Positions 1 to 9,264 of a stretch of DNA of 9,430 nucleotides are shown here, one piece after another. Origin of the DNA: an uncultured archaeon (lineage in GTDB: Archaea; Iainarchaeota; Iainarchaeia; Iainarchaeales; CSSED10-239); NCBI GenBank assembly GCA_964463155.1, contig CAYXAY010000017.1, forward strand, positions 5,734-15,163, read 5' to 3'. Under the pieces are notes generated by a model, which did no database searches, was not told the DNA's origin, and saw nothing but the letters and a program-made list of their open reading frames with translations. The translations under genes were made by a program, and so were the position numbers. Numbering within the stretch: position 1 is the stretch's first letter; each line of letters opens with the position of its first letter.

Positions 1-2
1 TT

Positions 3-887
3 TCAGGTAAAAACCGGCTTGTAAAAAATCAGGATAATTCTAAAAAATTCTATTGTGTTGATTCCGGAAATAATAATTCAGGAAACGATAATGTATCTTT
101 CATCAACGCTAGACGAAACAAAAGAAATTTTAATGAGCAAAATATAAGAAGCTTTGGAACAAGCCCTAATAGGTCAAGAACGCAACTGTTCTCACAACCA
201 AAGAACAACAACAGGCCACACAAGAGCAATAATGGTTTTAACAATAATGGAAACAATCACAAATTTCAAAACCCTGATGTTGCAAAATACATTTCTAATC
301 TTAATATTAAAGACCAGCCAGCAGTAATTGCTGCAATCAACGATAACTTTTTGAAAGTGGACTTGCAAAAATTACATGCAATTGACGAGAAGTTGCTTGA
401 TGACGCAATAATCACAAACAACAAGGAAACTGTGGATCTTGCAATCATAGCCTATGCCTACAGAAAGCTAATCTCTAAAAAACACATTTTTTACAACCCT
501 AATTGGAAAGCATTTAAAGACAAGACAATTGCTGATTTAAAACTTGCAACAGAATTATCAAAAAAAACAGACAAAACAGAATACAATAAAAAAATAAAAG
601 AAATACAAACAGACATTGAACACACAGACAAACTATTAGGACATTTCATACATGACATTGTTTTTAATGCTAGAGCAAAACTAGCATCTTCAGCCTATGC
701 TACAGGACTTTCATTGTCCCAAGCAACTAGCCTTTTGTCAGCAGACAAAGACGCGGTTATGGAGATTATAGGACAAACAAAGATTCCAGACGAAGATTCA
801 AGGATTATTGGAAAAACCATAAAAGAAAAAGTAGAAATCTTAAAAAAGATTTCAACCAAAAAAACAAACGAAGTGATTAAGAAATGA
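3..887 (+). CDS. Hypothetical protein, 5'-partial (start lies upstream of window); Asn-rich low-complexity region followed by a C-terminal UPF0175-like HTH segment
   Basis: This frame has no stop from nt 3 to TGA 885-887 (about 295 codons) in AT-rich DNA. The ORF-track start at 351 is only the first in-frame TTG, and there is no in-frame ATG upstream. N-part reads ...SGNNNSGNDN...NNNRPHKSNNGFNNNGNNHKF. C-part AKLASSAYATGLSLSQATSLLSADKDAVMEIIGQTKIP resembles UPF0175-type antitoxin HTH (by eye). The stop overlaps the next gene start (ATGA). Confidence 0.6.
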   Translation, partial: SGKNRLVKNQDNSKKFYCVDSGNNNSGNDNVSFINARRNKRNFNEQNIRSFGTSPNRSRTQLFSQPKNNNRPHKSNNGFNNNGNNHKFQNPDVAKYISNLNIKDQPAVIAAINDNFLKVDLQKLHAIDEKLLDDAIITNNKETVDLAIIAYAYRKLISKKHIFYNPNWKAFKDKTIADLKLATELSKKTDKTEYNKKIKEIQTDIEHTDKLLGHFIHDIVFNARAKLASSAYATGLSLSQATSLLSADKDAVMEIIGQTKIPDEDSRIIGKTIKEKVEILKKISTKKTNEVIKK

Positions 888-1555
888 AGATTGTTTTCGA
901 TACAGGAGTTTTAATTAGTTTTTCTCAGACATGTTTATTGCCTGCGTTTTCTCATATAAGAGACGATATTGGGGAGTTTGTAATAACAACAGGAGTAAAA
1001 TATGAATGTATTGACAGGGTTAGAAATAACATGAGGTTTAAACTAAGCTCTCTTAGAATAAACGACCAGATCAATGAGTTTATATTTACTATTTATAAGG
1101 GAGACAAAGAACTTGATAACAAAACAAAAGAAATACTAAACCTAACAAACAGCATTTATCTAATTAATGGAAACCCACTTAATATTGTTGATTTTGGAGA
1201 AGCCGAATGCCTTGCTCTTTTAACAATAACAAACGCAAATTGCCTAGCCATTGATGAAAGAACAACAAGATTGTTGATTGAAAACCCAGAAGTGCTTTTA
1301 GAGATATTAAGAAGAAAACATTCAAACAAAAAGATAGAGTTAAGAAAAGACAAACACGATAAGTTTAAGCAAATGATTGGAAGCCCGGTAGTCATCCGTT
1401 CAGTTGACCTTTTGGCTTTTGCATATGAGAAGAATCTTTTAAAAGGAATGATAACTGATAAAGAATATCTTAAGTCAGCCTTATATTCATTAAAATTCAA
1501 TGGTTGTGCAGTGTCCTTTGAAGAGATTGAAGAGTATCTACGGAATTTAAAATAA
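884..1555 (+). CDS. PIN-domain protein (DUF3368/VapC-like nuclease fold)
   Basis: 223-aa ORF. It has N-terminal IVFDTGVLI (first acidic PIN motif), then DFGEAECLAL and AIDERTTR motifs typical of PIN/DUF3368 proteins. There is a 4-nt ATGA overlap with the upstream gene. Ends at TAA 1553-1555. Confidence 0.7.
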   Translation: MKIVFDTGVLISFSQTCLLPAFSHIRDDIGEFVITTGVKYECIDRVRNNMRFKLSSLRINDQINEFIFTIYKGDKELDNKTKEILNLTNSIYLINGNPLNIVDFGEAECLALLTITNANCLAIDERTTRLLIENPEVLLEILRRKHSNKKIELRKDKHDKFKQMIGSPVVIRSVDLLAFAYEKNLLKGMITDKEYLKSALYSLKFNGCAVSFEEIEEYLRNLK

Positions 1556-1570
1556 AAAGAAGAAAAGAGA

Positions 1571-2380
1571 ATGAAGATAGTAAAAAAGAACAAAACATAT
1601 TTTCTAAACTTTGACAATGACGCAGAAGCAAAAGACCTAGAGAATTATATAAATAAAGACTTGGAAATCAAAGTAATCAACTCTCAAACACTAGTTCTTT
1701 CTTTGAAAGAAAAAAACGCGCTAATTGTTGGACAATCCAAGGTCGTTTCAAAACCGCCGTTAGTATTAACAAAAGACGAGATTAAAAAAAAATTAATAGA
1801 TATCCTTCAAGACAAAGACTTAACATTTAAAGAAAAAGTAGAAGGTCAATTTGAAACTCTTCTTAAGTTAGAAGACCTTTTAGTCTTTAAAGAGATGTTA
1901 AAGAACAAAGAGATTGTAACCTACAAGAAATCAGACAAATACAAAAAAGCAATCTATGTTGTAAATGAAGAGAAAAAACCATCCACTCTTCCAAACATCG
2001 CAAAAGAAGTGATTTCTTCCCAAAAGACTGTTGCGGAAGACCCCGACACAATAAAGAAAGATTTCCTTAAAAAAAAATATGCTATAATAAAAACTCTTGG
2101 GGTGGCAGACAAATTTGCAAAAGAATTTTATCCTAAGTTTAAAAATAATGAGATTAAAGGGCAGAAATCCTTTGATGGTTATTTTTATGTTATTGATGTT
2201 ACTCTTTACAACAACACCCGAAAACAAATACTTTCTTGTGATCTAGACAAAAACTTCTCAATTGACGATTTATCAAAGAAGTTAGGTAAAGACCAGGATC
2301 TTTTAAAGATAGCAATAGACTTTCTTAAAGAAGAAGGAGCAATTATAGAAAAAAGAAAAAACAGTTATTGTTTAGTTTAA
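1571..2380 (+). CDS. Hypothetical Lys-rich protein, probable winged-helix DNA-binding C-terminus
   Basis: 269-aa ORF with ATG 15 nt after the PIN stop. No catalytic motif recognised. C-terminal DDLSKKLGKDQDLLKIAIDFLKEEGAIIEKRKNSY has a wHTH-like pattern, and a second similar segment sits at residues about 67-130. Confidence 0.55.
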   Translation: MKIVKKNKTYFLNFDNDAEAKDLENYINKDLEIKVINSQTLVLSLKEKNALIVGQSKVVSKPPLVLTKDEIKKKLIDILQDKDLTFKEKVEGQFETLLKLEDLLVFKEMLKNKEIVTYKKSDKYKKAIYVVNEEKKPSTLPNIAKEVISSQKTVAEDPDTIKKDFLKKKYAIIKTLGVADKFAKEFYPKFKNNEIKGQKSFDGYFYVIDVTLYNNTRKQILSCDLDKNFSIDDLSKKLGKDQDLLKIAIDFLKEEGAIIEKRKNSYCLV

Positions 2381-2400
2381 ATTAGGAGAAAAGATAAGAC

Positions 2401-2697
2401 ATGGAAACATTAACAATAGTATTACTAGTAGCAATCGGAATATTTGCAGTTGGAAATGTTCTTTTGTTTTTATTGGAAAGAAAGCAAAAGCAAAGAGAAG
2501 CGCAAAGATTACCTTTTGGCTCAGCAAAAGAAGAAATACTAAATTCCAAGGTGGATGTTTTAAACAAAAGAGTTGCTCACTTGGAAGAAAAAGAAAGACA
2601 AAAACAAGAAAAGCCAAGCATTATAACAGCAATAATCAAAAAGAAGCCAAAGAGCAAATTTCCGATTACAAAGTATAAGAAAAAGAAGAAAAAGTAA
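2401..2697 (+). CDS. Small membrane-anchored coiled-coil protein with poly-Lys tail (hypothetical)
   Basis: AGGAG at 2384-2388, 12 nt upstream of the ATG. N-terminal hydrophobic helix TIVLLVAIGIFAVGNVLLFLL, a charged helical segment, and a C-terminal KYKKKKKK. Confidence 0.55.
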   Translation: METLTIVLLVAIGIFAVGNVLLFLLERKQKQREAQRLPFGSAKEEILNSKVDVLNKRVAHLEEKERQKQEKPSIITAIIKKKPKSKFPITKYKKKKKK

Positions 2698-2699
2698 AA

Positions 2700-2768
2700 T
2701 TAAGACATCAGCCCGCCCATTTTATCATCATGAATCAGCAGGTGTTCCTTTTTCATCATCTGTCTTAA
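2700..2768 (-). ncRNA. Box C/D sRNA (archaeal 2'-O-methylation guide RNA)
   Basis: Minus strand reads 5'-UUAAGACA-G-AUGAUGA(C)-AAAAGGAACACCUG-CUGA(D')-UUC-AUGAUGA(C')-UAAAAUGGGCGGG-CUGA(D)-UGUCUUAA-3', followed by UUUU. It has a perfect 8-bp terminal stem, perfect C, D', C' and D boxes, a 3-nt D'-C' loop and a 69-nt length. A TATA box lies about 28 nt upstream on the same strand. Confidence 0.8.
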
Positions 2769-2788
2769 ATAAGATAAGAAGGGAAATA

Positions 2789-2796
2789 TATTTAAA
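2789..2796 (-). promoter_or_regulatory. TATA box (TTTAAATA on minus strand) for the box C/D sRNA
   Basis: Forward tatttaaa equals minus-strand TTTAAATA. Its 5' edge is 28 nt upstream of the sRNA terminal-stem 5' end (2768), which is the canonical archaeal spacing. Confidence 0.45.
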
Positions 2797-2835
2797 GAGG
2801 CATACACAATATTTAGATAGATAAAAACGAAAAAA

Positions 2836-3510
2836 ATGAATATCCGACAGATTGCTGAAAGGTTTGAAACCTTTGTTAAAGACGAGGCGATTGTAGCCAT
2901 TGGCACAAGCGAATATGACGCGGAGTTTATTTATGAGTTTGTAAAACTGCTTTTACATAAGAACAAAAAAGTATATTTTGTTGCAACAACTGCAAAACAA
3001 GCAACACAGTTTCATCATCTTAGCCAGCAAGTGGTTTCCTTAAGCGATAAGGAGATTGATGTTGCAATTGAGTTTGCAAACCAGGTTGATAATTATAATA
3101 ATTTTATAAAAAAAGACACAAAATCATATATCAGAGACAAAATGATTGCCCAGTCTGCTCAAAACCTAATAGTTGTCTCTAATCTTTACAATGTTGTTGA
3201 AAAAATAGACAAAGACATCTATGTAGAGATAAGTTCTTTTGCTTGGGAAAGAACAATTTTAAACCTTCAAAGCTATGGCTTTGCAAGAGTTGTAAAAGAC
3301 ACAGAAGACAATTTCATAAAAACAGAGACAGGGCATTATCTTTCAAGAATAACTCTAGACAAAAATATTTCCCTCGATGACTTTGAATACTCTATTAGAA
3401 ACATACCTGGTGTTCTAGAAACAGGGGTTTTCTTAGGTCTAGCAGACATCTTTTTTATCATTGACTCAAATGAAAACATTATACTAAAAAAAACAAGTCA
3501 AATAAAGTGA
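2836..3510 (+). CDS. rpiA: Ribose-5-phosphate isomerase A-like protein, highly divergent
   Basis: 224 aa, collinear by eye with RpiA: IVAIGTSEY (vs GxGTGST), IDVAIEFANQVD (vs DGADEVD), FIKKDTKSYIRDKMIA (vs IKGGGGALxREK), and a C-terminal NIPGVLETGVFLGLAD (vs IPGVVExGLF). Ends at TGA. Confidence 0.6.
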   Translation: MNIRQIAERFETFVKDEAIVAIGTSEYDAEFIYEFVKLLLHKNKKVYFVATTAKQATQFHHLSQQVVSLSDKEIDVAIEFANQVDNYNNFIKKDTKSYIRDKMIAQSAQNLIVVSNLYNVVEKIDKDIYVEISSFAWERTILNLQSYGFARVVKDTEDNFIKTETGHYLSRITLDKNISLDDFEYSIRNIPGVLETGVFLGLADIFFIIDSNENIILKKTSQIK

Positions 3511-3516
3511 TGTCTT

Positions 3517-3945
3517 ATGAGAGCTGCTTTTCCAAAAAAGATACCAGGAACAAGAAGACAAATTCTTCATCTTGGAAATGTTGGCGAAGATTGTGCTTAT
3601 CGTTCAAAAAAAATAGCAAAAAGATTTCCGAATTATGATTTTCATGGTATTGATTTAAAAGACATTAAAAACAAAGAGATAGATCATCCAAGTGCAGAAA
3701 CAGACCTAACATTAAAACCACTAAGGGAAGCAAGACTTGATCTTAAAAAACCAGAAAATCTAAATCAGATTCAAGCAGAATTTATAGCGGGATTAAAGAA
3801 ATTTGAATACGAATCTTTGGATTTAGTATCTAGTGATTTTTCCGTAGGCTTTTACAAAAGAGAATACAATCCCGAAAAATTAAAACCGAATGCAAAGAAA
3901 GGATTTGAGATAGGTCACCAGTATGTGTATTCTAATTCAGGATAA
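3517..3945 (+). CDS. Class I SAM-dependent methyltransferase-like protein, N-terminal part up to the in-frame TAA
   Basis: 142-aa ORF. ILHLGNVGED (degenerate motif I), FHGIDL (motif II-like), ESLDLVSSDFSV (motif IV region). It ends at TAA 3943-3945 in the middle of the Rossmann fold. Confidence 0.6.
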   Translation: MRAAFPKKIPGTRRQILHLGNVGEDCAYRSKKIAKRFPNYDFHGIDLKDIKNKEIDHPSAETDLTLKPLREARLDLKKPENLNQIQAEFIAGLKKFEYESLDLVSSDFSVGFYKREYNPEKLKPNAKKGFEIGHQYVYSNSG

Positions 3946-4200
3946 TATGCAAAAAAGATAATAGATTTAATTTATCTAAAATTAAAACCAAAAGGAAAAT
4001 TAATTCTTTATTATTCTTTAGATAAACAAAACAAAAACCAGTATTTTAAAAGAAATGTGGAAGAGGTTTTTGAAAAAAGCAAATTTAAGTATAAAATAGA
4101 AGAAGTAAATATTACAAAAATTCCTGCAGATTATAGATCTTTTTATCTATTGCATTTTAGGGGCCTCAAAATCTACAGGGTCATTGCCATAAAAGAATAG
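3946..4200 (+). other. Same-frame, stop-free continuation of the methyltransferase fold (84 sense codons, no start codon), ending at TAG
   Basis: Directly after TAA 3943-3945 the same frame reads YAKKIIDLIYLKLKPKGKLILYYSLDKQNKNQYFKRNVEEVFEKSKFKYKIEEVNITKIPADYRSFYLLHFRGLKIYRVIAIKE*. LKLKPKGKLILYY is the classic LKPGGxLxx methyltransferase motif. There is no ATG, and the only GTG/TTG are internal (GTG at 4057), which is why the ORF track misses this stretch. Confidence 0.6.
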
Positions 4201-4229
4201 TAGTATTTTTATATATTTTTATGCTTAAT

Positions 4230-4237
4230 TTTATATA
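4230..4237 (+). promoter_or_regulatory. TATA box (TTTATATA) for the tRNA-Met/tRNA-Glu unit
   Basis: TTTATATA starts 27 nt upstream of the tRNA-Met 5' end (4257), which is archaeal promoter geometry. Confidence 0.5.
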
Positions 4238-4256
4238 ATAAGTGAGATCTATTTTT

Positions 4257-4329
4257 GCCTCGGTGGTTTAGCGGTTAGAACGCCAGACTCATAATCTGGA
4301 AATCGGCGGTCCGAATCCGCCTCGAGGCA
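4257..4329 (+). tRNA. tRNA-Met (anticodon CAT), elongator type
   Basis: Manual cloverleaf: acceptor GCCTCGG/TCGAGGC, anticodon arm CCAGA-CTCATAA-TCTGG, T arm GGCGG-TCCGAAT-CCGCC, discriminator A, no encoded CCA. It lacks the A1:U72 pair and the three G:C pairs in the anticodon stem expected of an archaeal initiator. tRNA-Ile2(CAU) is not excluded. Confidence 0.88.
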
Positions 4330-4334
4330 TCTTT

Positions 4335-4408
4335 GCTCGAATAGTGTAGCACGGTAATCACATCAGCCTCTCACGCTGATAACGGGGGTCCGAATCCCCC
4401 TTCGAGCA
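4335..4408 (+). tRNA. tRNA-Glu (anticodon CTC)
   Basis: Acceptor GCTCGAA/TTCGAGC, anticodon arm TCAGC-CTCTCAC-GCTGA, T arm GGGGG-TCCGAAT-CCCCC, discriminator A, no CCA. Only a 5-nt spacer separates it from tRNA-Met. Confidence 0.88.
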
Positions 4409-4416
4409 CTTTCCGA

Positions 4417-4429
4417 TTTTTCCCTTTTT
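4417..4429 (+). terminator. Oligo-T terminator after the tRNA pair
   Basis: TTTTTCCCTTTTT lies 9 nt downstream of the tRNA-Glu 3' end. Archaeal termination commonly uses T-runs. Confidence 0.4.
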
Positions 4430-4476
4430 AAAAAAGCTTTAAAAACATATTTCTCTTTGTATTGTATTGAAAGATT

Positions 4477-6045
4477 ATGCAATTCAAACAGACACCAGAA
4501 CAACAAGCAAGAGATCTTAGATTTTACGTGCTTGAAGGAGTGTTCTGGGCAATAATGTATTACCTTGGAATAATATTTTTAGTTCCATACCTGATATCCT
4601 ATAATGCAAACACTATGCAAATTGGTTTGTTAAACACCTTACCAATATTTATTGCATCTTTCTTTGCTCTTCTGTCTTATCAGTTCCTGAAATATTTCAA
4701 ATCAGAGAAACAGTTTGCCTTGTTTTTTGCAATAATTCAAGCAGCATTATGGATTCCACTTGCATTCATAGGATACCTGTTTAATGACCAACTCGTAATA
4801 TGGCTTGTAATAATTATTTACTGCCTTATCATAACATTAGAACAACTTCCATTTGCAGTATATAGGGAATGGATTGGAAGAGTGTTTAATACAAAACACA
4901 TTGTTGAATATAATTCCCAAAAACAAATAATACTAAATCTTGTTTCAATACTCCCATTGTTTCTTGCCGGAATATTATTGGATACAATAAACAAAAGCAA
5001 TGTTATAATTGGCTTTACAATAATTTTTATAGTCGTAGCAACATTTAGATTTCTTTCAGCAATCATGATAAGCAAGATGAGCCAGACAGAGACAAGCGAA
5101 GAATTGCAGAAAGAATCAAAAGAACTAAACAAACCCGTTTTTAAGATATTTAAAAATGAGGTTTTAAAAGACAAGCAATTTAAGTATTTCTTAATAATTA
5201 CCTCTCTTGTCTATCTAGGAATGCATATTGCAGCCCCATTTTACAGATATTATTTTTTAGAAGTATTAAATTTCAGTTATAAACAATACATATTTTTAGA
5301 AATAGGAGTAATACTTGGACTAGTGCTTAGTTTCTTCTATTGGGGGAAAATATGTGACAAGTATGGTTCAACAAAAGTGTTGAAAGCAATAATTCTTTTC
5401 TTGCCAATTTATCCATTAATGGTTATTCTTTTTGGTAACAATCCGTGGTTGTTATTTTTACTTAATGTCTTTGATGGAGCAATAATGGCAGGATTTGCTC
5501 TTGGAATATTTGGTTATTTCTATCAGAACATAAAAGAGGACATAATACATCACATGGCTTTTTTTATGATATTCCAATCACTTGCAATGCTTATTGGAAC
5601 ATTAATCGGAGGATATATATCTTCAAATCCACGATTCTGGTATGAAGGTTTAGAAAAAAACGGTTTGCTTTTGATTTTCCTAATATCTATGATGTTTAGG
5701 ATATTTACAATTGGATTTGTAAGCAAGATAAAAGACACTAGCAGAGTAAAAATCAACCTACCAAAGAACATACTTCTTCAAAAACCAATAATCTTTGGTT
5801 TAAACAAATTTTTAAACTTTACAAAAGATGAAGGGAAGATTCTTGCAAAAAGGCTTTACGATGAAAGAATGGAGCTTACAAAGGAACTTCAAAAAGAAGA
5901 AAAAAGTATTAGACAGAACATAAAAAAACTTGTTGTAAAAGAAAAAGAGCTGTTTAAAGAGATATCAAAATTACAGGACAAAGATAAAAACACAAAACTA
6001 AAAGAAAAAAACGTTTTTGGCAAGGCAAAAAAACACAGAAAATAA
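4477..6045 (+). CDS. MFS-type transporter with a Lys/Glu-rich C-terminal coiled-coil tail
   Basis: 522 aa. Two blocks of about six hydrophobic helices are separated by a charged central loop (SQTETSEELQKESKELNKP...). The roughly 100-aa tail is rich in K and E. Ends at TAA. Confidence 0.75.
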   Translation: MQFKQTPEQQARDLRFYVLEGVFWAIMYYLGIIFLVPYLISYNANTMQIGLLNTLPIFIASFFALLSYQFLKYFKSEKQFALFFAIIQAALWIPLAFIGYLFNDQLVIWLVIIIYCLIITLEQLPFAVYREWIGRVFNTKHIVEYNSQKQIILNLVSILPLFLAGILLDTINKSNVIIGFTIIFIVVATFRFLSAIMISKMSQTETSEELQKESKELNKPVFKIFKNEVLKDKQFKYFLIITSLVYLGMHIAAPFYRYYFLEVLNFSYKQYIFLEIGVILGLVLSFFYWGKICDKYGSTKVLKAIILFLPIYPLMVILFGNNPWLLFLLNVFDGAIMAGFALGIFGYFYQNIKEDIIHHMAFFMIFQSLAMLIGTLIGGYISSNPRFWYEGLEKNGLLLIFLISMMFRIFTIGFVSKIKDTSRVKINLPKNILLQKPIIFGLNKFLNFTKDEGKILAKRLYDERMELTKELQKEEKSIRQNIKKLVVKEKELFKEISKLQDKDKNTKLKEKNVFGKAKKHRK

Positions 6046-6062
6046 GGTTCTGTAGAAATCCC

Positions 6063-6084
6063 TTTACAATATTAATATTGTAAA
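6063..6084 (+). terminator. Perfect 22-nt palindrome followed by a T6 run (possible terminator for the MFS gene)
   Basis: tttacaatatt/aatattgtaaa at 6063-6084, then TTTTTT at 6094-6099, located between convergent genes. The stem is AT-only, so this is weak. Confidence 0.3.
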
Positions 6085-6102
6085 AGAAATAACTTTTTTA
6101 TT

Positions 6103-6655
6103 TCAACTTAATTTTTCAATATTATAGGTTAATACCTTTAGGATAACCGGCTTTTGCGGATTATCCTGTTTAGTCGCAGTTACAAAACCGCCTGTTGTTG
6201 GCTTGATTGCGGAGATTACTGATTCTACGGGATCTTTTGTTATAAGATTTAGTTCTAAATCGCTTCATTGCTTTTATTCTGTTATCAGACACAGTCTGAT
6301 AATTTGGCGGTTTTCTAAATGGTATGTGTACTGTTATGTTATTTCCCCAACAATATTCTAGTTTTTGTAAAATGTTTTTACTTATCTTACTTACAAACAT
6401 TTGTAGAATTGTAAAGTGCGGTAGTTTCGGGATGCCAAGCATTCTCAAAACATTTGTGTCGTTTAACAACTCTGTTAAATCACGATAAGAACATTTGTGT
6501 CGTTCTTTTATAATTAGTAAATATACATGAACAAAGTTGCTGTAAAGCTTGTTAGAGTACTTAGAAAAATGAGAAGGCAATCTAACTTCGCCAAAAACGC
6601 GTTCAACTTGTTTGAAAAAGGTATTAAAACTTATCGGTTGTAATATATTTAACAT
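6103..6655 (-). pseudogene. Degraded IS4/IS5-superfamily DDE transposase (IS remnant)
   Basis: The minus ORF 6170-6655 has an N-terminal HTH-like SYRDLTELLNDTNVLRMLGIPKLPHFTILQMF, then jumps to the C-terminal HIPFRK...SYNKRS. The conserved C-terminus VESVISAIKPTTGGFVTATKQDNPQKPVILKVLTYNIEKLS* continues in another frame down to TGA 6103-6105, with the frameshift near 6229-6232. Total length is about 185 aa, so most of the DDE core appears to be deleted. Confidence 0.65.
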
Positions 6656-6745
6656 AAATCTTCAAAATATATGTGTCGTAAGACATATATGTTTTTTATG
6701 TTGCAATTAAGGAGTATAGAGGGTTTCTACAAATCCATTTACTTT

Positions 6746-6753
6746 AAGGAGGT
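6746..6753 (+). promoter_or_regulatory. Shine-Dalgarno site (AAGGAGGT)
   Basis: Strong SD 5 nt upstream of ATG 6759. Confidence 0.6.
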
Positions 6754-6758
6754 AAAAA

Positions 6759-7235
6759 ATGTTTACAAACGCGTTGTTTGCAGTGATGGATTTTGCACCA
6801 ACAACCTCAACAGAAGGAATAGTAACCACAGGATGGTTGGGGACATTATTAGCGATGTTTGCGGCATTTATGGTTGTTGCAATAATAATAGGAATAGCAT
6901 TATATGTTTATAATTCCGTGATATGGTACACCATTGCAAAAAAATTAAAACACAAATACCCATGGTTAGCATGGATTCCATTTGCAAATATTGCAATGAT
7001 ATTACAATTAGGTGATTTCCGTTGGGCACTAATATTCTTACTATTGATTCCACTCTTAGGATGGCTTGCAGTTGTTGTGCTATTGTTTATTGCAACGTGG
7101 AGAGTCTTTGAAAAAAGAAAATATCCTGGCTGGTTAGCATTAATACCATTAGCAATTGCAATACCATTTTTAGGTTTTGTAGTAGCTATTGGATATCTAG
7201 TACTAATTGGCTTTGTTGCATGGAAAGATAAATGA
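6759..7235 (+). CDS. Small polytopic membrane protein (DUF5684-like)
   Basis: 158 aa with about four hydrophobic helices. KYPWLAWIPFANIAMILQLG...LLLIPLLGW...KYPGWLALIP resembles the repeated xWLAWIP motif of DUF5684-type proteins (recalled by eye). Strong SD. Ends at TGA. Confidence 0.7.
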   Translation: MFTNALFAVMDFAPTTSTEGIVTTGWLGTLLAMFAAFMVVAIIIGIALYVYNSVIWYTIAKKLKHKYPWLAWIPFANIAMILQLGDFRWALIFLLLIPLLGWLAVVVLLFIATWRVFEKRKYPGWLALIPLAIAIPFLGFVVAIGYLVLIGFVAWKDK

Positions 7236-7260
7236 TTTTATCTTTCTCTTTTTTTATTTT

Positions 7261-7602
7261 TTAACATTTATTTTCTTTTATGATAGGGATGGTGTCAGCT
7301 ATACAAGCATTGTTATAAGTTACATCATTAGCTGCACAAACAGGACCATATCCCATAGTGCATGGCTTTGATATGTCGATAACAGATTATCTTTTAGAGC
7401 ATTCTTTTCTAAATTGCCTCCATTCTTCGCATTCAGAATGCCCATCCGGTAATATACAAGCACTAAATTGTCCTTTCACATCTTTTGTTTCTAAAAATCC
7501 TCCAAGCGTTAAACAGTTACGAGATGCCGGATTTTCAATCCCTGTGTTTGTTGCAGGCTTTAATAATACAAAACTTAAAACAATTGCAATAACAACAACT
7601 AA
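7261..7602 (-). pseudogene. DUF333 (putative-hemolysin-like) plus Kazal-like domain secreted protein; in-frame TAA between the domains and no canonical start
   Basis: Minus-strand frame: LVVVIAIVLSFVLLKPATNTGIENPASRNCLTLGGFLETKDVKGQFSACILPDGHSECEEWRQFRKECSKR*SVIDISKPCTMGYGPVCAANDVTYNNACIADTIPIIKENKC*. NPAS..C...GG....C.LPDGSECEEW...EC matches DUF333. C..GYGPVC..N..TY.N.C matches the Kazal core. The internal TAA is at 7387-7389. Another TAA (7603-7605) immediately precedes the hydrophobic segment. There is no in-frame ATG, GTG or TTG before residue 42. Confidence 0.6.
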
Positions 7603-7620
7603 TTATATATAAAAGACAAG

Positions 7621-7632
7621 AATTTATAAATT
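7621..7632. promoter_or_regulatory. Palindromic TATA element (AATTTATAAATT) in the divergent intergenic region
   Basis: Perfect 12-nt palindrome. TTTATAAA ends 22 nt before ATG 7653 (near-leaderless GGCT-like gene) and sits about 20-25 nt from the start of the minus-strand DUF333-Kazal frame. Confidence 0.35.
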
Positions 7633-7652
7633 ATTTTATTATAGAGTTTTCT

Positions 7653-8216
7653 ATGATTAAAAAAATAATTATTGCTTTGTTGTTATTGTTTTTTATTGGT
7701 TGTATATTTTATATTTTAACTAAACAATCAACAACAATAGTAACAATGGATCCAGAAGACGAGAATAAGATATATTATTTCGGTTATGGAAGCAACATGG
7801 ATATTGATCTTTTAAGAAATAGGATTGATAATAATTCTATTGTGCCTGTAAGTTATGCAAAACTTGAAGACTATGAACTGATTTTTCCAAGAGGGGTAGG
7901 TAGTGTTATCCCTAAACAAGGGCACGACATATATGGTTGCCTTTATCTTTTGACAAGAGAAGAAATATTAAAGCTTGATATTGTTGAAGGTTACAAGGAA
8001 GGCAGAGACCGAAACAAAAATAGTTATATAAGAGACAAGATTAATGTTATTGTTCCAGATGGTAGAACAATACAAGCAGATATCTATATTCAAGTAAACA
8101 ATACTATTGATTACAAGACAAGTCAAAGTTATAAAGATACACTTGTTAAAGGCGCAAGCGATTGTTCTCTTCCCGATTTCTATAAGACAGAATTAGAGCA
8201 AATAGAAGTTAGATAA
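7653..8216 (+). CDS. Gamma-glutamylcyclotransferase / AIG2-like family protein with N-terminal membrane anchor
   Basis: 187 aa. N-terminal KKIIIALLLLFFIGCIFYIL helix, then the YYFGYGSNM motif and LDIVEGY (catalytic Glu region) typical of the GGCT/AIG2 fold. Confidence 0.7.
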   Translation: MIKKIIIALLLLFFIGCIFYILTKQSTTIVTMDPEDENKIYYFGYGSNMDIDLLRNRIDNNSIVPVSYAKLEDYELIFPRGVGSVIPKQGHDIYGCLYLLTREEILKLDIVEGYKEGRDRNKNSYIRDKINVIVPDGRTIQADIYIQVNNTIDYKTSQSYKDTLVKGASDCSLPDFYKTELEQIEVR

Positions 8217-8328
8217 TTTTCTTAATTTTGTGAATTTGTTATTTGTCGTAAAATTTTTGCATTTTCCAAAATAACAGTTATATTCTCGGCACTGGACAGT
8301 CTTCCTCCCCAAAACACCCAGATTTCTT

Positions 8329-8349
8329 TCACCAATATATTATTGGTGA
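8329..8349 (+). promoter_or_regulatory. Hairpin sequestering the Shine-Dalgarno site of the Bro-N-family gene
   Basis: TCACCAAT (8329-8336), loop ATATT, ATTGGTGA (8342-8349), giving a perfect 8-bp stem. The 3' arm contains the SD GGTGA (8345-8349), 7 nt upstream of ATG 8357. Confidence 0.4.
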
Positions 8350-8356
8350 TTAATAG

Positions 8357-8770
8357 ATGCAAGACAAAAATGAAATTGCAATTTTTGAAAACAAAAAGAT
8401 AAGAAGATCATGGCATGAAGAAGACTGGTGGGTTTCAGTAGTTGATATTGTGGGGGCATTGACTGAAAGTGAAAGACCCAGAAAATATTGGAATGATTTG
8501 AAATTTAAGATATCAGAAGAAGGTTTCCAGTTGTCCGAAAAATTCGGACAACTGAAACTACAATCTGAAGATGGTAAATATTATGAAACAGATTGTGCAA
8601 ATCTTGAAGGAATCTTTAGAATAATTCAATCAATTTCTTCTCCAAAAGCAGAACCATTCAAGTTATGGCTTGCAAAGGTCGGTTATCAAAGAATTGAAGG
8701 AAACATAGATCCAGAACTAATAATCAACAGAGTTTTAGATACTTATCTAAGGAAAGGTCATTCTATATAA
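8357..8770 (+). CDS. Bro-N domain family protein (phage antirepressor-like), N-terminal part up to the first in-frame TAA
   Basis: 137-aa ORF. FENKKIRRSWHEEDWWVSVVDIVGALT (Bro-N-like) and the highly characteristic IQSISSPKAEPFKLWLAKVGYQRIE block. GGTGAT SD at 8345-8350. Confidence 0.75.
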   Translation: MQDKNEIAIFENKKIRRSWHEEDWWVSVVDIVGALTESERPRKYWNDLKFKISEEGFQLSEKFGQLKLQSEDGKYYETDCANLEGIFRIIQSISSPKAEPFKLWLAKVGYQRIEGNIDPELIINRVLDTYLRKGHSI

Positions 8771-9190
8771 TTGGCAAATCAAAGACTTAAGGCAATTGAA
8801 GTTAGAAAAGAATTGACAGAGGAGTGGAAAAGATGCGGTATAGAAAAACCACCAGAGTTTGCATCTCTCACAAACACTTAAACAAAGGCCCGGTCTGATA
8901 GAACAGTAAGAGAATATAAAGATTTAAAAAATTTAAAGAAAGAAAAATTAAGAGACAATATGACTAATATAGAACTAATATTAAATCTCTTTGCGGAAGC
9001 AACAACAACCGAGATTTCCGAGATTGAAAATCCAAATGGTTTTCTTCCAAGTGAAGATGTTGCTAAATCTGGTAGAGAAATTGCAGGAAATACAAGAAAG
9101 AATATTGAAAAAAGATTCGGAAAAACAGTAATCACTTCTAAAAATGCAAAAAATCTTTTAGTGGAAAAAGAATATAAAAAAATAGGATAG
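8771..9190 (+). other. Same-frame continuation of the Bro-N-family gene through TAA 8768-8770 and TAA 8879-8881, ending at TAG 9188-9190
   Basis: Codon-by-codon reading in the frame of 8357 gives LANQRLKAIEVRKELTEEWKRCGIEKPPEFASLTNT*TKARSDRTVREYKDLKNLKKEKLRDNMTNIELILNLFAEATTTEISEIENPNGF...GKTVITSKNAKNLL...*. This order of motifs (RxELTxEW, EFAxLTN, EYKxLK, NLRDxM, ELIxxxLxExxTxEIS, GKxVxTxxN) matches the full-length family as I recall it. ORF-track entry 8960-9190 is only its tail. Confidence 0.65.
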
Positions 9191-9191
9191 G

Positions 9192-9264
9192 TGGTCCCAC
9201 CCGGGATCGGACCGGGGATCTCTACCATGTCAAGGTAACGTCATAACCACTAGACCATAGGACC
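9192..9264 (-). tRNA. tRNA-Val (anticodon GAC)
   Basis: The reverse complement folds as GGTCCTA-TG-GTCTAGTGGTTATGAC-G-TTACC-TTGACAT-GGTAG-AGATC-CCCGG-TCCGATC-CCGGG-TGGGACC-A. The D arm is archaeal-type and there is no encoded CCA. An AT-rich TATA-like stretch at 9277-9290 lies about 20 nt upstream. Confidence 0.88.

Follow-up and report, generated by a model that had tools for sequence, protein, structure and literature searches.

Three TAA-interrupted reading frames in an AT-rich archaeon are probably ordinary nonsense pseudogenes of different ages

Has the codon TAA acquired a second meaning in this archaeon, or have three of its genes been inactivated by ordinary mutation? The question is raised by a stretch of 9,430 bases from an uncultured archaeon (assembly GCA_964463155.1, contig CAYXAY010000017.1), hereafter the window, in which three unrelated reading frames are interrupted by in-frame TAA codons and continue beyond them in the same frame. 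The frames are a methyltransferase-like (MT-like) frame, a Bro-N / DinD-like frame (Bro-N for short) and a DUF333+Kazal frame. The window has a GC content of ~31% and derives from an AT-rich DPANN-type archaeon related to the metagenome-assembled genomes (MAGs) labelled 'Candidatus Ainarchaeum' and 'Candidatus Forterrea'. We assign a probability of roughly 0.8 to the explanation that the three genes are ordinary nonsense-mutation pseudogenes of three ages and that TAA keeps its stop meaning. Ordinary point mutations would have turned sense codons into TAA, inactivating the genes. An initial annotation, made from the sequence alone, had left two options. Recent nonsense-only pseudogenisation has gained support, given the sense codons in orthologues, the startless Kazal frame, the loss of invariant Bro-N residues and the use of TAA to end neighbouring genes. 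Context-dependent readthrough of TAA has gained none: the stops are not conserved, no shared motif or structure accompanies them, no suppressor tRNA lies in the window, and the intact genes are free of internal TAA.

The MT-like frame (3517-4200, plus strand) carries a TAA at 3943-3945 and then stays open for 84 codons up to a TAG at 4198-4200. The Bro-N frame (8357-9190, plus strand) has one TAA at 8768-8770, after which 36 codons are free of stops, and another at 8879-8881, after which 102 are, before it ends with a TAG at 9188-9190. On the minus strand, the DUF333+Kazal frame (7261-7626) is interrupted at 7387-7389 and 7603-7605, with 41 and 71 stop-free codons after the respective TAA, and terminates with a TAA at 7261-7263. 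Both the coordinates and the translations agree with the five in-frame TAAs, in three frames devoid of frameshifts, that had been listed initially. The proposed homology past the stops is likewise borne out, the alignments being gap-free across every TAA in all three frames. That a frame should stay open by chance for 84 or 102 codons is indeed improbable (P ~7e-4 and ~1e-4, respectively, for this composition), and the runs are this long because the stretches are real coding sequence. The claim that no usable start codon follows a TAA was only partly right. There is a TTG at 8771 directly 3' of the first Bro-N TAA, an ATG at 8960 after the second, and a GTG at 4057 after the MT-like TAA; these would give fragments of only 36, 76 and 47 amino acids (aa).

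The TAAs at 7603, 8768 and 8879, three of the five, were confirmed independently of the original assembler by the Logan assembly of run SRR11582140, which is 100% identical to the window over positions 21-3493 and 7480-9210. The matching Logan contigs break at 21, 3493, 7480 and 9210, which may reflect low coverage or strain variation between 3494 and 7479; the MFS and DUF5684 proteins encoded in this interval have their only record at NCBI. Searches of the JGI metagenomes for near-identical strains, in which the sequence surrounding the MT-like TAA had to match exactly and any codon was allowed at the TAA itself, gave no match, and neither did a search there for a syntenic island with the GGACT-family protein of the window as query.

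As the initial annotation had proposed to check, we aligned orthologues at the TAA sites. The relatives carry sense codons there and none has a stop, at any site, among the nine MT-like loci and the Bro-N homologues examined. The stops thus lie at sense codons from which point mutation leads to TAA (GAA; TTA or CTA; AAA, AAG or GAA), and most of these codons are one base change away from it. The residues encoded in the relatives differ from site to site, namely Lys/Glu/Thr, Glu, Leu and Gln; therefore, no single decoding of TAA fits them.

The DUF333+Kazal frame is dead however TAA is decoded. It represents a secreted or membrane-anchored protein whose Pfam matches, DUF333 (E 5.6e-11) and Kazal_1 (E 5.4e-05), flank the TAA at 7387, and a 117-aa protein with these two domains matches it from end to end at 54% identity. 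A word-indexed protein search with this frame returned no matches; the homologues came from an exhaustive search of representatives. The TAA at 7387 falls in the variable linker between the two domains, where the nearest homologue has Gln. The TAA at 7603, initially placed directly in front of a signal-peptide-like segment, does not interrupt a frame that could otherwise start. From the upstream stops up to the DUF333 domain, the frame offers no ATG, GTG or TTG. Its first such codon is GTG 7479, which already belongs to the domain. TAA also occurs at 7624-7626, six codons upstream of TAA 7603, which brings the premature TAAs to three. TAA 7603 sits at or beside codon 2 of the ancestral gene: the preceding ATA aligns with the start Met of the homologue, and the N-terminus reads I-stop-LVVV (ATA TAA TTA GTT) as compared to MALVIV in the nearest homologue. 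With no start codon and the extra TAA at 7624-7626, decoding TAA would therefore not rescue this frame. Moreover, the frame departs from the family at three of six nearly invariant columns (Gly to Ser, Gly to Ala and Gly to Asn). Judged by its lost start (ATA for Met) and three TAAs, this would be the most decayed of the three genes.

The Bro-N copy is probably a decaying pseudogene as well. Homologues of 277 aa match the frame along its entire length (100%), with identities reaching 81%, and the Pfam Bro-N domain (residues 15-107) is complete before the first TAA is reached. At the first site, the three homologues with available DNA have GAA, and Glu is present in 18 of 20 aligned homologues; at the second site, homologues with DNA have CTA or TTA, both Leu. 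Damage extends well beyond the stops. At columns conserved to at least 95%, the window copy shows eight departures, compared to a median of one and a maximum of six in 118 homologues. Four lie upstream of the first TAA (F26V, P94S, E115G and Y135H) and four downstream (W139L, W179R, L212F and G240R). The W179R change concerns an invariant Trp four codons downstream of TAA 8879, which has become CGG (Arg). Using seven distant outgroups, we counted 18-25 lineage-specific changes in the window copy and 6-9 in its closest homologue, while control pairs were balanced. The excess amounts to ~3:1 relative to the closest homologue and 1.1-3:1 relative to others, and the counts against the closest homologue are 16:2 downstream and 9:4 upstream of the first TAA. 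Codon usage in the window sets the neutral expectation at one nonsense per 13-16 missense mutations, and the ratio in the window copy, one extra stop to ~15 extra missense changes, agrees with drift in an inactivated gene.

The genomic setting of the Bro-N copy differs from that of its relatives. The closest homologues occupy a fixed locus, running from Beta_propel to Bro-N and convergent with an HhH-GPD glycosylase gene, and one of them belongs to the same assembly as the related locus L009. The window copy is not syntenic with this locus and sits between the GGACT gene and a tRNA-Val gene. The window copy is thus displaced, and possibly redundant. It would rank as the intermediate case, a displaced copy with two TAAs, ~15 extra amino-acid changes and two invariant tryptophans lost.

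Several further observations concern the Bro-N family. At positions 8768-8773, two G-to-T changes four bases apart convert GAA TGG into TAA TTG, making the stop, removing the adjacent invariant Trp and incidentally creating a TTG start-like codon. The family is very strongly conserved and has at least 8000 matches; the best 120, which are full length and 56-81% identical, come from archaea, Bacteroidales, Alkaliphilus and a Candidatus Taylorbacteria MAG. In the C-terminal part of 170 residues, no Pfam family is matched, and NCBIfam gives a weak DinD-like match (E 1.2e-3). In addition to the window gene, family members were located at L001 6043-6876, L004 4363-5196, L017 3001-3834 and L018 3001-3837, and in relatives the 3' end of the Bro-N gene overlaps the gene of the convergent HhH-GPD glycosylase.

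The MT-like gene presents a different picture. Thirteen homologues of 220-240 aa cover it completely, with identities of up to 77%. The TAA site is occupied by AAG in the closest orthologue (locus L007, 77% identity) and by AAA, GAA or ACA in eight further loci, so that none of the nine orthologous loci is interrupted. The gene belongs to no Pfam family, and the AlphaFold model of an orthologue (predicted local distance difference test score, pLDDT, 80) has a class I S-adenosylmethionine (SAM)-methyltransferase fold; Foldseek matches of this model in the PDB, at E ~1e-9, include TrmB/METTL1 and NpmA-type rRNA methyltransferases. In the model, the TAA falls before the last three core beta-strands of the Rossmann-like fold. 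The truncated 142-aa product should not fold, as the model implies, because these three strands would be missing. The order from the first gene of the window to RpiA, MT-like, tRNA-Met, tRNA-Glu and major facilitator superfamily (MFS) transporter is kept in ten related loci, among them Candidatus Ainarchaeum-labelled MAGs and the complete Candidatus Forterrea multitransposorum genome; the MT-like gene is therefore a resident gene, and a conserved one. In this lineage, then, a gene with a SAM-methyltransferase fold always stands beside RpiA and the tRNA-Met/tRNA-Glu pair. The term 'accessory island', applied initially to all the interrupted frames, is thus wrong for the MT-like gene and its conserved block, and reasonable for positions 6046-9190. 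The TAA is probably a very recent nonsense allele. Because the gene bears a single TAA and no other damage, the knockout would be very recent, and the population may still be polymorphic for it, or else the stop is tolerated; in either case, the gene appears to be dispensable, or freshly lost, in one population. As there is no sign of decay, readthrough of this TAA is conceivable, and the MT-like gene is the least clear-cut of the three.

We next turned to the use of TAA outside the interrupted frames. The genes at 884-1555, 1571-2380 and 2401-2697 all end with TAA just where, in the alignment, their L007 orthologues end (with TAG, TAA and TAA, respectively). These three genes are conserved, with ratios of nonsynonymous to synonymous substitution rates (omega) of 0.06-0.13 against L007. 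They serve as controls and show TAA to be a working stop, in agreement with the initial judgement that a blanket reassignment of TAA is unlikely. Among the eight intact genes of the window, six of which are conserved and syntenic in relatives, 1975 codons contain not a single internal TAA. It had also been pointed out that both plus-strand interrupted frames end at TAG. This is true and uninformative: the MT-like TAG is shared in position and codon with the L007 orthologue and is thus ancestral, and the Bro-N homologues end at the same position as the window frame with TGA. It follows that the TAG ends say nothing about TAA.

Signs of a recoding apparatus were equally absent from the window. 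The window encodes three tRNAs, tRNA-Met(CAT), tRNA-Glu(CTC) and tRNA-Val(GAC), none of them a suppressor. An Rfam scan returned these three tRNAs only, and a known recoding RNA element was rejected on that ground. The 70-nt segments starting at each TAA share no motif and form no significantly stable structure (fold z-scores -1.2, -0.65, +0.87, -1.94 and -0.34), the only feature common to the TAA contexts being a T at the following position (+4) in four of the five. In ~165 kb of related loci, we found no interrupted conserved gene once ribosomal RNA (rRNA) artefacts had been removed. The first stop screen of these relatives was swamped by off-frame and antisense open reading frames (ORFs) and was then restricted to dominant ORFs. 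Apparently conserved in-frame TAA/TGA codons in L011 (~900-3600), L012 (~1700-3700), L014 (~400-3000), L015 (~400) and L016 (~4100) were rejected, as these are rRNA genes. The conservation of rRNA yields spurious alignable ORFs and is a trap for automated stop-codon screens. As a separate observation, after the TAA of gene 884-1555 the same frame stays open for 274 codons and reaches into gene 1571-2380, and a fusion of the two proteins would result if TAA leaked. The L007 orthologues of these two genes lie in different frames, and the shared frame in the window looks like coincidence.

A number of findings weigh against the pseudogene explanation. The MT-like gene has 14 unique changes as compared to 17 in its L007 orthologue and is thus not accelerated; each of the ten relatives examined has it, conserved and in synteny; its pairwise omega is 0.11 overall and 0.04 downstream of the TAA; and by sequence alone it looks like a living gene, with no additional lesion besides its single TAA. 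Since synonymous divergence (dS) is saturated at ~1-2, omega here reflects the history before the stop arose and shows only that inactivation was recent. For Bro-N, the pairwise omega of 0.11-0.12 is just slightly above that of intact pairs (0.08-0.10), and the values of 0.09-0.15 downstream of the stops likewise describe pre-stop history at a dS of ~1-2. We therefore rejected dN/dS against the nearest relatives as an uninformative test of post-stop selection. Further, the DUF333+Kazal frame retains all 25 invariant residues, cysteines included. Nor is the genome as a whole decaying: in a relative-rate comparison with six relatives, the core genes of the window are not accelerated, and genome-wide relaxed selection was accordingly rejected as a cause. 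As regards further lesions, they are present in the Kazal and Bro-N genes and absent from the MT-like gene.

The composition of the interruptions is also unusual for decaying genes. All five stops are TAA, where ~51% of new nonsense mutations would be expected to be (P ~0.035), and T follows four of the five. For the latter, P is 0.008 with codon-position-1 frequencies as the reference and with no correction for the many other contexts that might have been inspected, and a Fisher test against the terminal TAAs gives 0.08. At two sites, the +4 T derives from ancestral Tyr and Trp codons. These statistics are post hoc, concern five sites and come from a window selected for looking odd. Prokaryotic pseudogenes usually owe as much to indels as to nonsense mutations, and the three frames contain no frameshift, where the expected number is small and not zero. 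Finally, three interrupted genes in 12 is a high local density, with none detected in the relatives. The clustering of stops in few genes was dropped as an argument, as three of 11 genes is not significant (P = 0.23).

The first alternative to recent gene death is tolerated leaky termination, in which TAA would still be a stop and low-level near-cognate readthrough would keep the MT-like protein, and perhaps Bro-N, partly functional, so that the nonsense alleles persist. We consider this unlikely. Such leakiness would account for an MT-like gene that is conserved in all relatives and has no decay other than its TAA, and for stops that are all TAA and mostly TAA-T. It would also have precedents, since low-level translation of disrupted genes has been documented in Salmonella (PMC9122581), and prokaryotic genes that are otherwise conserved are reported to contain in-frame stops commonly, most of them short-lived (PMC7918605). 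In the Salmonella proteogenomic data, however, most of the readthrough was at UAG (68.6%) next to a C, and U was seldom found at +4 (PMC9122581), the reverse of the pattern in the window. The stops are moreover unconserved and no downstream structure assists them. In Bro-N, both invariant tryptophans are lost (W139L and W179R) and departures occur on both sides of the stops, and the Kazal frame could not be started in the first place. The 274 open codons after the TAA of gene 884-1555 would be awkward if TAA leaked appreciably. In general, UAA is the least leaky of the stop codons.

A broader version would make leaky UAA termination a property of the lineage, by way of a weak ochre-suppressor tRNA or a relaxed archaeal release factor 1 (aRF1), with the following U perhaps favouring readthrough. 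This is a long shot. If it were true, TAA alleles, as opposed to TAG, TGA or frameshifts, would be tolerated even in the conserved MT-like gene, and the lineage would be the first case of a prokaryote that naturally suppresses or recodes UAA, with a bearing on how stop codons are reassigned in AT-rich genomes.

A quite improbable alternative is that some TAAs, especially those at 3943 and 7387, are technical errors or consensus calls from a minority strain. Pseudogenes with internal stops are often, or at least in part, assembly artefacts at low coverage (PMC11017572), and the Logan assembly is fragmented here, its matches leaving precisely these two TAAs uncovered. On the other hand, an independent assembler reproduced the other three at 100% identity. 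About 5% of random base changes create stops, and five stops made by error would imply ~100 errors in ~2 kb, next to neighbouring genes that are normal in omega (0.06-0.13) and have balanced rates. The missense damage in Bro-N and the lost Kazal start point to real decay.

It is very unlikely that the interrupted genes persist as shortened functional products, either as a 137-aa protein with the Bro-N domain or as fragments re-initiated at TTG 8771, ATG 8960 or GTG 4057. The position of the whole Bro-N domain upstream of the first TAA, the start-like codons after the stops and the stronger acceleration downstream (16:2) than upstream (9:4) would agree with it. Four of the eight departures from conserved columns, namely F26V, P94S, E115G and Y135H, nevertheless fall in the N-terminal part that would have to be functional; an N-terminal MT-like fragment would be without three core strands, and the Kazal frame is without a start.

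Genuine recoding, in which an ochre-suppressor tRNA or a modified aRF1 would make TAA an amino acid in some contexts, is the least probable explanation, as its small-sample patterns (five of five TAA, four followed by T, no frameshifts, plus-strand frames ending in TAG) stand against aligned residues (Lys/Glu, Glu, Leu and Gln) that fit no single meaning, intact genes without internal TAA, at least three conserved genes that TAA ends at orthologous positions, an ancestral MT-like TAG and TGA ends of Bro-N homologues, a Kazal frame that is dead regardless, three window tRNAs of which none is a suppressor, and a screen of >250,000 bacterial and archaeal genomes according to which the changes known from bacteria all concern UGA, and stray stop inferences are put down to pseudogenes or contamination (PMC8629427). 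Taken together, genuine leakiness or recoding of TAA in this lineage has a very slim chance. We thus return to nonsense pseudogenes, and infer that none of the three genes gives rise to a functional full-length protein and that they died in the order DUF333+Kazal, Bro-N and MT-like.

The remainder of the window falls into two parts. The first, at positions 1-6045, corresponds to the conserved block (loci L007 and L009-L016), most of whose proteins have no Pfam family. A run of plus-strand genes starts with a partial gene (3-887), continues with three intact, conserved genes for proteins of 223 aa (884-1555; faint DUF3368 match), 269 aa (1571-2380) and 98 aa (2401-2697), and leads via the gene for ribose-5-phosphate isomerase A (RpiA, 2836-3510) to the MT-like frame. 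The tRNA-Met(CAT) and tRNA-Glu(CTC) genes (4256-4409, plus strand), neither of which could read UAA, and the MFS transporter gene (4477-6045, plus strand) complete the block. The two tRNA genes are separated by 3 nt in the window and in L007, by 9 nt in L011, and by 0.8-2.9 kb in five other relatives. The pair spans 5786-5938 in L007, 6829-9197 in L009, 9027-12101 in L010, 10737-11688 in L012, 6160-7256 in L013 and 10677-13579 in L014, and insertions seem to have entered the spacer repeatedly in this lineage.

The second part, at 6046-9190, is a variable, decaying region, because nothing of its content was found in the ten related block loci and because it contains the relic of an insertion sequence. 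This N-terminal relic of an IS5-family transposase (6170-6655, minus strand) was recognized by a tblastn match to an annotated IS5 transposase and by NCBIfam NF033579 (E 1.3e-8, 34.7 bits against a cut-off of 140). The match covers positions 32-100 of 289 in the profile, and the catalytic part is therefore missing. An exact 15-nt direct repeat, AACATTTGTGTCGTT, is present at 6449-6463 and 6490-6504, and the related sequence TGTGTCGT lies in a palindromic stretch at ~6665-6695, just upstream of the relic start. The region further contains genes for a DUF5684 membrane protein (6759-7235) and the GGACT-family protein (7653-8216), which flank the DUF333+Kazal pseudogene, and ends with the Bro-N copy, whose stop abuts the tRNA-Val(GAC) gene (9190-9264, minus strand); this tRNA, too, is unable to read UAA. 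An integrated element bounded by a tRNA-Val repeat was considered and rejected, as no att-like direct repeat was found.

How does the window compare with known systems? Stop-codon recoding is established for UGA, which is read as Trp or Gly in bacteria and as selenocysteine in archaea, and for UAG, read as pyrrolysine in archaea. Ciliates reassign UAA and UAG to Gln, with context-dependent termination (PMC4967479). The interrupted frames resemble such reassignments in that in-frame stops lie inside homologous, otherwise open frames. In true reassignments, however, the codon occurs throughout conserved genes, corresponds to one amino acid, has no more than contextual use as a terminator and is served by a cognate tRNA. 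The TAA of the window, in contrast, is absent from intact genes, aligns to several residues and ends conserved genes, and no TAA-reading tRNA was seen among the three window tRNAs. That pseudogenes with in-frame stops can give rise to false recoding calls is known (PMC8629427), and our case illustrates why caution is needed. In AT-rich, small-genome archaea, freshly killed genes can mimic recoded ones by their open frames, by the conserved motifs after the stop and by having TAA as the only kind of interruption. Stop-codon screens should thus be controlled for orthologue codons, start codons and terminator usage, and likewise for rRNA genes, before recoding is claimed.

A second comparison is with the so-called pseudo-pseudogenes of bacteria. 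The disrupted frames are otherwise intact and, judging from the reading frames themselves, a low level of full-length translation would be conceivable. Unlike the readthrough described in Salmonella, which affects mostly UAG with C adjacent, the stops of the window are all UAA, four of them followed by U. The window differs from typical nonsense pseudogenes in that it has TAA only and no frameshifts, albeit in a small sample, and in that the MT-like gene is conserved, syntenic and free of other decay. In all other respects the agreement with prokaryotic nonsense pseudogenes is close: the stops occupy sense codons of the orthologues, most of them one mutation away; they pile up in a dead gene; a start codon and invariant residues have been lost along with them; and two of the three genes lie in a variable region with the relic of an insertion sequence. 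The case thus fits an ordinary and already known category, that of nonsense pseudogenes.

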